64,000 nucleotides of DNA, taken from the sequence record PP925826.1; one strand, given 5' to 3'. Under the pieces are notes generated by a model. The model did no database searches and was not told where the DNA came from. It saw nothing but the letters and a program-made list of their open reading frames with translations. Shown piece by piece: positions 5,557-14,373 of this stretch. Each line of letters opens with the position of its first letter. Within the stretch, counting starts at the first letter, position 1. The translations under genes were made by a program, and so were the position numbers. Source of the stretch: Escherichia phage Antha.

Positions 5557-5805
5557 TTACCATCGAATAACTATTCGAGTAAAGTTTTCATCGTAATGAG
5601 ATGTTTCTGTATCAATAAAAGTTGAAAAACCTTCAGCATCCAAGTTAACTTTTACAAAAGTTGGATAAAGCGTGTAGATAGCAACTTCTCTGTCTCCATC
5701 TTTAGCTGCTCTCTCAATATACGAGTAGATACTTTGTAGACTCTCCTTTGCTTTGTTAAGTTCTGCGTTTTCTGCCAGTTCTCTCATTTTATCTGCTACA
5801 GTCAT
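5557..5805 (-). CDS. hypothetical protein
   Basis: 82-aa ORF. Confidence 0.45.
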   Translation of the reverse strand: MTVADKMRELAENAELNKAKESLQSIYSYIERAAKDGDREVAIYTLYPTFVKVNLDAEGFSTFIDTETSHYDENFTRIVIRW

Positions 5806-6074
5806 TTGTCAGTATCCTTTTCAATAAAGCCTGTGGTTTTACAAGGTACACACTCATACATTTGTCCAACATCTGCAACCACCCAACCCATTCCATTGCA
5901 ATAAGGACAGATTGTTTTGTTCTCTTTAGCATACACAGCCAGAAGTCTTTCTTCTAGCTTGTTGTAATCAGCAAGAAGAACATAGTCTCCTTCTGGATCT
6001 GGTACAATATCACATTGACCAGCAGCACCTTGGCTGTACACCTCTAAATCATATCGTGTAACCATTATTCCCAC
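5802..6074 (-). CDS. hypothetical zinc-ribbon protein
   Basis: CPYCNG..CVPCK motif; paralog of 11210-11434. Confidence 0.45.
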   Translation of the reverse strand: MGIMVTRYDLEVYSQGAAGQCDIVPDPEGDYVLLADYNKLEERLLAVYAKENKTICPYCNGMGWVVADVGQMYECVPCKTTGFIEKDTDK

Positions 6075-6283
6075 TCCGCAATCAGTTTTGGATTTTCTGC
6101 ACGAGAATAGAATGTTGTAATGTCACCGTAAGTGTACTCTTGTTCCGACAGTTTTACAAGAGAGATCATTTCACGATCTGGAGTACCAGGAATCCAATCA
6201 AATACGGCAACGCCACGTGGTGTTACATAGAAACCAGATGTATTACCCGTAAACTTATCTTTTCCTTTATATAATTTGTACAC
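6065..6283 (-). CDS. hypothetical protein
   Basis: 72-aa ORF. Confidence 0.4.
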   Translation of the reverse strand: MYKLYKGKDKFTGNTSGFYVTPRGVAVFDWIPGTPDREMISLVKLSEQEYTYGDITTFYSRAENPKLIAEWE

Positions 6284-6339
6284 TTTCTACTCCTTATAGA
6301 TAGAATCTATTAAAAACCTGCTATCAATCGGTATAAACA

Positions 6340-6400
6340 GTTTTACTTTTCGTAAAAAACATGCTACCCTAATCTTATATACCGAGCGATAGCGAGGTAG
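6340..6400 (+). promoter_or_regulatory. promoter-like element with conserved leader (copy A)
   Basis: TTTACT-N17-TACCCT then cgagcgatagcgaggtag; near-identical to element at 33286-33350. Confidence 0.35.
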
Positions 6401-6490
6401 AGAATATTCCATGTTATACATGGAAAGAGTATATGTAATGTTACTAACTCTATAACTAACTATATACTCTTTATACCTTACTTACTACTC

Positions 6491-6754
6491 TTATTGAAGT
6501 TCAAAGATATCCCCATCTCCATCATATCCATACTCTAACTCTCCTGTATCATATAATACAATAAAGTCTGTATCATCTTCAATAAAAGATTTAGCATAAT
6601 CTACTAACTCTTCATTATCTTCATACCCTTCCAGGTACTCAATACGACCATTGATACATTTAGCTGCAACAACTCCTGGGCCATTGCTTGGAGTCCACTC
6701 ACTGTATACTCGCATACCTAATTCTTTAATCATTGTTTGTCTCCTCATAATCAA
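6491..6754 (-). CDS. hypothetical protein
   Basis: 87-aa ORF. Confidence 0.4.
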   Translation of the reverse strand: MIMRRQTMIKELGMRVYSEWTPSNGPGVVAAKCINGRIEYLEGYEDNEELVDYAKSFIEDDTDFIVLYDTGELEYGYDGDGDIFELQ

Positions 6755-6950
6755 TGTAGTTGTAACACTTATTCTTTAAGAAATCTTCTGCTTGTTTCTT
6801 GTGTTTTAGAATGATGCACTTCTCTTTATTCTGTTCTACATCATTATGTAGATTGTATAAGTTAGATGCTCCATACAGAATACCAATTAACAAAAGCAAA
6901 AAGATTGCTGTTGATAACAAAAATTGTTGCAACTTGTTTACAGACTTCAT
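6726..6950 (-). CDS. small membrane protein
   Basis: N-terminal TM helix; paralog of 11739-11948. Confidence 0.4.
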   Translation of the reverse strand: MKSVNKLQQFLLSTAIFLLLLIGILYGASNLYNLHNDVEQNKEKCIILKHKKQAEDFLKNKCYNYIDYEETNND

Positions 6951-7173
6951 AAACCCTCCTTATCGTTAGTACACATTGATACTAACAAGAAGTTAAGATC
7001 GTGTCAACATCTTTGTGTTAATTTTATCCACTGTTCACATTCTTCTTTTGTGTCGTACTCTACAGGCTTTCCTGTATCATTTCCACAACCATCTCCGAAC
7101 GTAGCCCACCAGGAGAATAGAAAACAAGTTTCTCTTACTCTCCACTTATTGGCATAAGGTACAACATAATAAC

Positions 7174-7425
7174 TCATAAGATTGTGATCCTTAGTTCATT
7201 TTCTAAGGTATGTCTCACACACTCTTTGAAATTGTTATCAATATACACCACACGTACTCCATGAGGTGTGTCTTTACATTCAAACACATTATATACAGTA
7301 TCAGATAAGACATGTTGTACGTTTACTTGTCCAATGCCATTTTTAACCACAACCATTACTTTCAGTAAACTTGTATGGTTTTTAACTTCATCTTCTACAT
7401 ATGCTACAACATCTTTGATATTCAT
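7174..7425 (-). CDS. hypothetical protein
   Basis: paralog of 13464-13925. Confidence 0.45.
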   Translation of the reverse strand: MNIKDVVAYVEDEVKNHTSLLKVMVVVKNGIGQVNVQHVLSDTVYNVFECKDTPHGVRVVYIDNNFKECVRHTLENELRITIL

Positions 7426-12309: not shown

Positions 12310-12318
12310 GACTTCTCC

Positions 12319-12618
12319 TTAATACCAGTCTACGATCACTGAATCTACAAAGCCCTCTTTGGTGTTTAAAGCATACACCTTACTAAGCCCATGCTCTCGT
12401 AGTGCTTCCATAGCAAGATCAATCAAATCAACTTGTCGTTTCTTTGCTTGTTCATTTTTTGGATAGTCATCCAAACCGAAAACAGATGGTTTAAATGCTT
12501 TGGAGTATTTGCCAGTCTTAGCCTGATCATAACAGTCCTGAATAATTTCCTCAATAGGAAACCATAAACCTTCTCCACTTTGCTTTGCAATACAGCGCAG
12601 TTTTTCTGTAATAGTCAT
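12319..12618 (-). CDS. hypothetical protein
   Basis: 99-aa ORF. Confidence 0.4.
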   Translation of the reverse strand: MTITEKLRCIAKQSGEGLWFPIEEIIQDCYDQAKTGKYSKAFKPSVFGLDDYPKNEQAKKRQVDLIDLAMEALREHGLSKVYALNTKEGFVDSVIVDWY

Positions 12619-12827
12619 TCTTCCTCTCCTTTCAATTTACACTCAAAGATACCATTCTTAATGTTATCTGTCAAATAAAGGCTATCTTCTATCTCTTCTT
12701 TTGTATACACATAAGCCTCCTTTTCCACGTCTGTCAGACCTTGCATCGGAGCTAGTAGCCACCAGCCCCGCCAGTCAAACATAGGAGACTTATCAGATAC
12801 ACGAAGAATGTATCTGTCATTACACAT
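12615..12827 (-). CDS. hypothetical protein
   Basis: 70-aa ORF. Confidence 0.35.
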   Translation of the reverse strand: MCNDRYILRVSDKSPMFDWRGWWLLAPMQGLTDVEKEAYVYTKEEIEDSLYLTDNIKNGIFECKLKGEEE

Positions 12828-12830
12828 ATA

Positions 12831-13283
12831 TTATACGATGTTCACACTAATATCTGCAACACCAACAAGAGAATAGACTTCAACTACACTCTGTGTACGA
12901 TCCAGCTTGTAACGTTTCGCCTCTTTTTCAACTTCCTCACGGGAGATGGTTCCCATGATCGGAACTCCATCCACTACAAGCAGGTATTTCTCTTCGTATT
13001 TACTTTTTGGTGCTTCCTCTAAGACTTCTACAAAATACTCAAACTCACTTTTTGCAAGCAACGTGTAACACTGAAGAAAGTCTCCTTCATTTTGAGCGAT
13101 AATTTCTTGTTCTCCTGCCAAGGATTGCAAAGCAGTGACACCATACCAATCATCCACATCTAATACACGAAAATAAGAATCACCTAAAAAAGAAGCAATC
13201 CTGCTATTGCACTCAGACACGTTAGCAAACTTACGGATATAAGATGGGTTCTTAAAACGATACACTTTACCAATTTCAAACAT
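12831..13283 (-). CDS. hypothetical protein
   Basis: 150-aa ORF. Confidence 0.45.
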   Translation of the reverse strand: MFEIGKVYRFKNPSYIRKFANVSECNSRIASFLGDSYFRVLDVDDWYGVTALQSLAGEQEIIAQNEGDFLQCYTLLAKSEFEYFVEVLEEAPKSKYEEKYLLVVDGVPIMGTISREEVEKEAKRYKLDRTQSVVEVYSLVGVADISVNIV

Positions 13284-13463
13284 TACACAAATCCTTATTG
13301 TTCAAGAGTAAAAGGAATGATTTCACCATAGCTGTATTGCATGGCATTCACTTCTGCTTCTGCACGTTGTGCTAGTTCTAATGTTGCACAGATCTTGTAA
13401 GAAACAGTGCTGCATTGGCTCCAGCCTGGGGTATTCTTTGTTACTAAGTACACAGTAGTTTCT

Positions 13464-13925
13464 TTATTCATAACTTTCCTCTCCTAGTTCATCAAACCAT
13501 TTCAAAGCGTCTTTTGGAAGCATACCAAAATCTTCTTTCAGTTCTTTTTCAATCTCTTCTTTCATTTCATTCAACACTTGCAGTTGGCGTATTTTCTTCC
13601 GTAACAAAGTTTCCCGCTCATTGTTGCTTGGTGTTACTTCATTTGCTGCCATCATCACATATCCGGTCGGAGAGCAAGGAAGATAATCATCAATATTTTC
13701 TAAAGCATAACGAAAATTGGAATCCAAGAAGTTTACATGCACTTGATCACATCCAAACAACTTGGCACGAAATACTTCATAACGAGTTTCAGATAAGATA
13801 TGTCGCACACAGACAATACCTACATCATTTTGCACTGCACAGGTTACATCTAACAAACTTGAGTGTTCTTTGACATAATCTGCAACACATTGCACATGTG
13901 CTTCCAGTATAGATAGTTGTCTCAT
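13464..13925 (-). CDS. hypothetical protein
   Basis: paralog of 7174-7425. Confidence 0.45.
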   Translation of the reverse strand: MRQLSILEAHVQCVADYVKEHSSLLDVTCAVQNDVGIVCVRHILSETRYEVFRAKLFGCDQVHVNFLDSNFRYALENIDDYLPCSPTGYVMMAANEVTPSNNERETLLRKKIRQLQVLNEMKEEIEKELKEDFGMLPKDALKWFDELGEESYE

Positions 13926-14007
13926 TTTCTACCTCCCCATAATGCTAACATTTTATTGAAAATGGAAACGCGTCGTGCGCGGTATGCAAACCACTATACA
14001 GACATTT

Positions 14008-14373
14008 TTATTCAATGCAAGCATTATTTGCATCTTCGATTCTGTCTTTCACCCATTGCAATCTTCCTGGGTTCGTATGGCAAGAATGTTTCTTACCTTC
14101 ATCTTCATAACACAGAAGATCATCATTAAAGGGCAGGAAGGAGGATAACCCAGCACACGTGAATTGCCATTTCATCTCTTCTAGCGTTTTACTACGAACC
14201 ATCTTGAAATGTTCTATATCTTCTTGCGTAGGTTTTTTCTTTGACATAGTGGTTGCCAGATAATCCATAAGGCAAATACACAAACCAACATTCTCACGAT
14301 GCATTGAGGAATGATCTTCCATCCATGCTTTATAGAATTCTAACAGCAGTGGACTGCTAAGAGGAACACACAT
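14008..14373 (-). CDS. hypothetical protein (LLQFY paralog family)
   Basis: start set at ATG with AAAGGAG RBS; 122 aa like paralog 11941-12309. Confidence 0.45.
   Translation of the reverse strand: MCVPLSSPLLLEFYKAWMEDHSSMHRENVGLCICLMDYLATTMSKKKPTQEDIEHFKMVRSKTLEEMKWQFTCAGLSSFLPFNDDLLCYEDEGKKHSCHTNPGRLQWVKDRIEDANNACIE

Follow-up and report, generated by a model that had tools for sequence, protein, structure and literature searches.

Families of diverged small genes at the leading end of the phi92-like Escherichia phage Antha and their apparent piecemeal assembly

Phages of the T4 superfamily combine a conserved core with a plastic, or hyperplastic, early periphery. In Bacillus phage SPO1, the host-takeover module, and in T5, the pre-early genes, consist of small early genes that are located at the first-entering end of the genome, inside the terminal redundancy. 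Among eukaryotic viruses, the multigene families (MGF) of African swine fever virus and the amplification of the poxvirus gene K3L are recent, tandem expansions that are tied to host-range selection. Here, we describe families of paralogous small genes at the left end of Escherichia phage Antha, based on a stretch of 64,000 nucleotides from the sequence record PP925826.1, referred to as the window. Of the approximately 33 early genes, 11 belong to five families, here called A, B, C, D, and F. On balance, we lean towards the interpretation that these families were assembled piecemeal over a long time, and not by one recent copying of a gene cassette.

The window represents a phi92-like phage of the genus Justusliebigvirus, with 97-99% identity to VEcB, EmilieFrey, and phi92. 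A megablast search with positions 5500-14500 matched 124 phage records, the best of which were the Justusliebigvirus phages VEcB, VivaForever, EmilieFrey (Bas61), and phi92, with 91-100% query coverage and 96-99% identity. The region corresponds to gp001-gp026 of phi92, whose gene numbers are used below. All of these genes are on the minus strand, and nearly all are annotated as “hypothetical protein”. The region starts immediately inside the left direct terminal repeat and presumably comprises the early genes at the leading end of a phi92-like myovirus genome. As in the plastic regions of the T4 superfamily, small and mostly unannotated early genes occur in dense runs on one strand and are subject to gain, loss, and recombination. 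However, the lineage is a different one, Stephanstirmvirinae, and one third of the genes fall into internal paralogous families, which seems more than such regions would lead one to expect. The resemblance to SPO1 and T5 lies in the small proteins encoded at the end of a linear genome beside a direct terminal repeat, with a presumed role in the shutdown or redirection of the host. This is a likeness of position, and the genes in Antha are located just inside the terminal repeat rather than within the redundancy. As in African swine fever virus and the poxviruses, families of small proteins are placed near the genome ends and differ in copy number between relatives (from three to nine for family D), but unlike those expansions the phage copies are of ancient origin, lie mostly apart from one another, and evolve under purifying selection.

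An earlier note on this DNA had listed three gene pairs and one three-member family as homologous by eye, and all four were recovered in an all-against-all BLASTP comparison of 32 early proteins. The pairs are 5802-6074 and 11210-11434 in family A (36% identity over 44 amino acids, E 2.6e-5), 6726-6950 and 11739-11948 in family B (50% over 30 amino acids, E 6e-9), and 7174-7425 and 13464-13925 in family C (45% over 74 amino acids, E 5e-12). The members of each pair are called A1 and A2, B1 and B2, and C1 and C2, with the copy further from the terminal repeat numbered 1. Family D consists of D1 (10447-11031), D2 (11941-12309), and D3 (14008-14373), all on the minus strand, and its three mutual matches were all significant: 31% over 114 amino acids between D1 and D2 (E 4e-10), 40% over 117 amino acids between D2 and D3 (E 7e-25), and 37% over 46 amino acids between D1 and D3 (E 2e-6). 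The terminal motifs that had been reported for this family can be seen in the alignment as LLQFY or LLEFY and R(I/V/L)(E/Q)WV. In families A and C, the homology is limited to the N-terminal domain.

When the 394 open reading frames (ORFs) of at least 40 amino acids in the window were compared, the only cross-hits with E<1e-3 were the pairs within families A-D and three pairs elsewhere, two of them between large genes and the third, a marginal one, between short ORFs. Every member of families A-D matched its own PHROG profile at E 1e-22 to 1e-140, and also that of its partner, more weakly. The profiles are phrog_2510, 27059, and 6418 for family D, 14944 and 27423 for family C, 15662 and 23204 for family B, and 23083 and 22955 for family A; cross-hits to phrog_15662 and phrog_23204 thereby link B1 and B2. 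PHROGs holds the partners in separate families, none of which has been given a function. Paralogy within the genome is not recorded in PHROGs or in the phi92 and BASEL annotations, and the literature on phi92, BASEL, and the new Stephanstirmvirinae does not discuss these genes. The HHalign probabilities for families C, B, D, and F are inflated, as the partner alignments contain the same outside homologs, and the pairwise tests were therefore preferred.

The duplicates have diverged strongly, with protein identities between paralogs of 21-49%. The segmental duplication that had been proposed could not be traced in the DNA, as a blastn comparison of 5.4-7.8 kb with 10.4-14.5 kb gave no significant match. 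The best was 38 nucleotides at 76% identity (E 0.03), and the few best short matches fall in register within the A, B, and C pairs. In codon alignments of the paralogs, the proportion of synonymous differences (pS) was 0.66-0.93, indicating saturation, and the non-synonymous divergence (dN) was 0.5-1.1. Since the synonymous sites are saturated, ratios of non-synonymous to synonymous divergence (dN/dS) between paralogs are uninformative. Judged from these distances, the duplicates are very old.

To place the copies in an evolutionary context, we compared the region with the sister genus Phapecoctavirus. In phAPEC8_ev052 and phiWec181, the upstream gene order is D, D, C2, copies of the GoF-like gp003, gp005, D with B2 immediately behind it, A2, and a D of the gp010 type. 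The upstream set in Antha (D3, C2, D2, B2, A2, and D1) would accordingly represent an ancestral arrangement common to the two genera, while the downstream C1, B1, and the N-terminal domain of A1 would be additions specific to Justusliebigvirus. Orthologs of C1, as identified by tblastn at 95% identity or more, are limited to Justusliebigvirus, and only C2-type genes with 35-46% identity were found elsewhere. Matches to B1 are confined to Justusliebigvirus records (88-100% identity), and the N-terminal domain of A1 is likewise present in this genus only. In phiWec181, gp021, two copies of gp024, and a gene for a zinc ribbon of 64 amino acids are contiguous. In Antha, C1 is located before gp021, B1 and gp023 are located between gp021 and gp024, and the zinc-ribbon gene carries a fused A-type N-terminal domain, which gives A1. 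In a neighbour-joining tree, none of the three D copies is the sister of another, and each of them has a syntenic counterpart in Phapecoctavirus. The genes between the paralogs, gp002-gp006 and o11481 on one side and gp021, gp023, and gp024 on the other, showed no relationship in PHROG, iterative hidden Markov model (HMM), and HHalign searches. Two additional pairs that had been suspected by eye, gp021 with gp002 and gp026 with o11481, were rejected (Z -1.1 and Z -0.1, respectively).

These results retain one part of the earlier proposal that an early gene cassette was duplicated and diverged: the genes are homologous, duplication was followed by divergence, and order and strand are the same in both blocks. 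The part that finds little support is the copying of a single block. The interleaving with genes that are contiguous elsewhere, the fusions and fissions, and the genus-restricted copies are better explained by stepwise accretion than by one block copy. The processes involved would be duplication of single genes or small segments, the joining and splitting of genes, and recombination with related phages whose alleles had diverged.

A number of observations weigh against piecemeal assembly. Both blocks read C, B, A along the direction of transcription and are on the same strand, and the three downstream copies lie inside six gene slots. By a rough count made after the fact, the probability of obtaining this order by chance is 1/6, and that of order and clustering together is about 0.02. 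Collinearity of C, B, and A within a short span is what would be left if a single block had been duplicated and genes had then been gained and lost. Similar dN values for the A, B, and C pairs (0.64, 0.73, and 0.50) fit a single event, and the restriction of all three downstream copies to Justusliebigvirus gives them a shared taxonomic range. With few genera sampled, it is also possible that C1 and B1 were lost in Phapecoctavirus. Furthermore, the early expression of these genes is inferred from their position adjoining the terminal repeat, and searches for a function gave no convincing match: none of the families had a match in Pfam, NCBIfam, or PADLOC that passed a curated threshold or was convincing by its E-value, and sequence searches against PDB were empty.

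The alternative that draws most on these observations is a single ancient duplication of a C-B-A cassette, followed by divergence, by insertion or loss of the genes in between, by truncation of C1, and by the fusion in A1. It retains neighbouring paralogs with order and orientation kept, but contiguity is absent, none of the intervening genes pairs up, and both the DNA trace and the boundaries of a block are gone. In addition, it requires three separate insertion points, as the separating genes are contiguous in phiWec181. The N-terminal domain of A1 is more similar to another gene in Phapecoctavirus (L004:23748-23960 in phiWec181, 49% over 41 amino acids, situated after a gp005-like gene) than to A2 (36%), and families D and F fall outside the scheme altogether. 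We therefore consider such an event doubtful and the single-cassette picture weakly supported.

Comparisons between related genomes revealed a flux of genes and alleles. The presence of D3, C2, and o11481 varies within Justusliebigvirus. In EmilieFrey, C2 is absent, and there is an extra D copy that groups tightly with a Phapecoctavirus D in the neighbour-joining tree. In phi92, o11481 is absent and D3 is reduced to a remnant of 20 amino acids. C2 in the Phapecoctavirus phage phAPEC8 (protein P0202) is 89% identical to C2 in Antha, while C2 in phAPEC8_ev052 (L006:2162-2623) is 56% identical to both of them; the last 35 or so residues are near-identical in all three. This pattern points to C2 alleles that cross genus borders and to recent horizontal spread by recombination. 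Together with the extra D copy in EmilieFrey, it shows that early-gene alleles move between the genera, and some of the “paralogs” may consequently be foreign alleles that were inserted at new sites.

Taken further, all of the downstream copies could be pseudo-paralogs, that is, diverged alleles from an unsampled relative that were recombined into non-allelic sites. Allele exchange between genera is directly observed for C2 and one D copy, and the flux of left-end genes among Justusliebigvirus genomes agrees with such an origin. C1 is equally distant (29-38% identity over the shared domain) from every known C2 type, the one in its own genome among them, while the C2 types are 41-100% identical among themselves. 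C1 is therefore an outgroup to the whole C2 diversity, which also speaks for the great age of the duplicates. However, the same distances are explained by fast divergence after an internal duplication. Moreover, 50,697 phage records contained no donor that resembled C1, B1, or the N-terminal domain of A1 except for weak matches (E 0.02-0.09), and a scan of viral contigs with the family C profile yielded three loci in all. We consider a foreign origin of all three downstream copies unlikely, although both this and the block duplication overlap in part with piecemeal assembly.

To examine the selective constraints, dN/dS was estimated with the Nei-Gojobori method by pooling the differences among the window and four further Justusliebigvirus genomes. 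The within-genus ratios were 0.02-0.34 for nearly all genes, and those of the paralogs with sufficient data all fell in this range, the fastest-evolving of them being B1 (0.34). The copies are real constrained genes under purifying selection. As this applies to all copies, the paralogs probably do different jobs. C2 differs in having a ratio of about 0.9, which is based on as few as 7 silent and 24 replacement differences. Its synonymous divergence within the genus is 0.012, as compared to 0.05-0.15 for its neighbours, which fits the recent spread of one allele. The idea that the families evolve under host-range or defence selection found no support in these ratios, as diversifying selection was not seen. 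The variation in copy number and in presence between close relatives fits an accessory role with a fast turnover. Finally, it is hardly credible that the similarities are chance or low-complexity matches of short ORFs. The proteins are indeed short, and the weakest pair, A, was aligned over just 44 residues, but this reading is refuted by the reciprocal PHROG profile matches, the near-exclusive cross-hits among the 394 ORFs, and the purifying selection on every member.

Family D is widespread in phages. An HMM of the family identified exactly three copies in the window. D3 (14008..14373, minus strand, 121 amino acids; E 2e-31) is the first gene after the terminal repeat and non-coding region and is duplicated in EmilieFrey, and the start that had been assigned to it at position 14373 is correct, with an ATG codon preceded by the ribosome-binding site AAGGAG 7 nucleotides upstream. 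D2, which corresponds to gp006 (11941..12309, minus strand, 122 amino acids), has an 8-nucleotide overlap with the start of B2. This arrangement is also present in Phapecoctavirus, where a D gene is followed by B2 at L006 6068-6573. D1, or gp010 (10447..11031, minus strand, 194 amino acids), consists of a D domain (residues 7-113) and a C-terminal domain of about 80 amino acids, which is a separate ORF in Phapecoctavirus (L006 9483-9809 for D and 9812-10033 for residues 120-193 of gp010).

A search of 1.84 billion proteins with a profile built from the three copies retrieved 679 cluster representatives at E<=1e-3, while a word-indexed search with gp006 as the query gave one close match only. 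The representatives are mostly about 100-120 amino acids long; some comprise two domains, and in a few the domain is joined to sequence that carries no annotation. Ten longer proteins with a D domain contained no Pfam domain that hints at a function, and there is no Pfam model for the family itself. With tblastn, the family was identified in 177 phage records at 1-9 places per genome, often in the first few kb of the record. These belong to many unrelated phage groups and include Stephanstirmvirinae, Salmonella and Escherichia phages of 45-48 kb, Erwinia phages of about 75 kb, Rhizobium phages, and a Yersinia phage of 175 kb. Four Stephanstirmvirinae genomes contained 3, 6, 9, and 9 copies. 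In 92 aligned sequences, L16, C39, P83, F84, and R106 are invariant, and S13, F19, Y20, G37, L38, E68, Q72, F73, L78, N103, W109, and V110 are nearly so. The AlphaFold2 model of D2 contains six helices (mean predicted local distance difference test score 90), and the family is confidently modeled as all-alpha with no relative in PDB.

The two members of family A share an N-terminal module of about 45 residues on differing C-terminal parts. A1, or gp025 (5802..6065, minus strand, 87 amino acids), most likely starts at the ATG at position 6065, as in the annotations of its relatives, rather than at the GTG at position 6074. It contains the A domain (residues 4-47) and a zinc ribbon (residues ~52-85) with the pattern CxxCxGxG...CxxCxxxG, here represented by the motifs CPYCNGMG and CVPCKTTG. 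The C-terminal part matched the Pfam family DnaJ_CXXCXGXG (PF00684) with 15.8 bits, below the gathering cut-off of 32.7. Its orthologs in Phapecoctavirus are zinc ribbons of 64-65 amino acids that lack the A domain, and by this comparison A1 is a fusion of an A-type N-terminal domain with a zinc-ribbon gene. A2, or gp008 (11210..11434, minus strand, 74 amino acids), contains the A domain and a C-terminal segment of its own, and corresponds in Phapecoctavirus to the N-terminus of a protein of about 150 amino acids. Its N-terminal domain (residues 2-48) gave a partial match to the 182-position profile of the Lar-like restriction alleviation protein phrog_3592 (E 7.7e-4), with no support from Pfam or NCBIfam.

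The proteins of family B have a hydrophobic N-terminal helix and two conserved cysteines. The members are B1, or gp022 (6726..6950, minus strand, 74 amino acids), in which the helix is predicted to be a signal peptide or a membrane anchor, the former given by a SignalP note in the phi92 record, and B2, or gp007 (11739..11948, minus strand, 69 amino acids). In B2, the two cysteines are located in a conserved C-terminal segment, and its ortholog in Phapecoctavirus is 45% identical. In family C, C1, or gp020 (7174..7425, minus strand, 83 amino acids), consists of the N-terminal domain alone. C2, or gp001 (13464..13925, minus strand, 153 amino acids), shares this domain (residues ~1-80), which comprises one helix and a four-stranded sheet, and continues with a long C-terminal helix. 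Family F, which was not in the list of the earlier note, consists of F1, or gp018 (7721..7960, minus strand, 79 amino acids), and F2, or gp023 (6491..6733, minus strand, 80 amino acids).

Our best guess, from position, size, and copy-number behaviour, is that these proteins have a role in host takeover or anti-defence. They would be stand-alone effectors that are made at the start of infection and bind different host targets. Family D would provide a six-helix domain of about 110 residues with the invariant Cys39, Pro83-Phe84, and Arg106, and family B a mini-protein, secreted or anchored in the membrane, in which two cysteines are conserved. Family C would provide a small alpha+beta domain, either alone or extended by a long helix that possibly drives oligomerisation, and family A a module of about 45 residues that is joined to various C-terminal parts.

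The gp003 gene (12831-13283), which matches PHROGs for the GoF-like “mRNA metabolism modulator”, occurs once in Antha and as a tandem of two or three copies in Phapecoctavirus (L006:2616-3873; L004:22337-23380), where there is also a second gp005-like gene. It follows that further early families vary in copy number across the subfamily. An ORF of 44 amino acids (6287-6421, minus strand), which is a gene in the EmilieFrey annotation, had 0 synonymous and 20 non-synonymous differences pooled over the five genomes and is probably not protein-coding. Outside the early region, two genes for AAA-type ATPases (44544-45704, plus strand; 28653-29780, minus strand) are 16 kb apart and 47% identical over 254 amino acids, and represent an old paralogous pair. 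The tandem paralogs 58666-59679 and 59691-60635, both on the plus strand, are 41% identical over 324 amino acids, and the latter has a weak glycosyltransferase-like match in Pfam. The window contains no tRNA genes.

A scan for promoters and terminators did not define the transcription units, and promoter-like sites were not enriched (41 found and 44 expected). A strong terminator-like hairpin at 16067-16085 on the minus strand, with seven pairs (six of them G-C) and a T-run, ends the preceding minus-strand unit. It is located just before an AT-rich non-coding stretch of 1.6 kb that corresponds to the terminal-repeat region of phi92. The palindrome AATGATAATCATT is similar to the E. coli Fur-box consensus GATAATGATAATCATTATC. 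Searched on both strands with at most one mismatch, it gave 13 matches, as compared to 0.37 expected by chance. Four such sites are placed in the non-coding DNA that precedes the first early gene (14739-15853), and about five are arranged in tandem in another non-coding stretch, at 26.5 kb (26509-26597). They could serve in binding of the host Fur protein, either for iron-dependent control or for titration of Fur, or as a phage operator. A literature search on such clusters turned up nothing relevant.

The early region is also present in several records that are named “Campylobacter phage” with C. jejuni as the host (MG065639, MG065645, MG065656, MG065689, and others). Five of these had megablast matches, and proteins from such records are 89-100% identical to those in Antha. 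The records may be mislabelled or represent contaminant sequences.

Paralogous small genes of this kind are an ordinary feature of large lytic phages, and Antha is of a known phage type. The overall consequence is therefore small, as such paralogs are expected in the plastic early region of a well-known phage type. The results nevertheless link PHROG families that are presently kept apart, correct the idea of one copied cassette, and show that the leading ends of phi92-like and phAPEC8-like genomes exchange alleles across genus borders. The one element that merits follow-up is family D, a widespread, expandable, and structurally new phage domain. Tentatively, it may form a major class of early effectors in phages that has so far gone uncharacterised, with each copy neutralising its own host target or defence system. 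If so, family D would be a phage counterpart of the multigene families in eukaryotic viruses.

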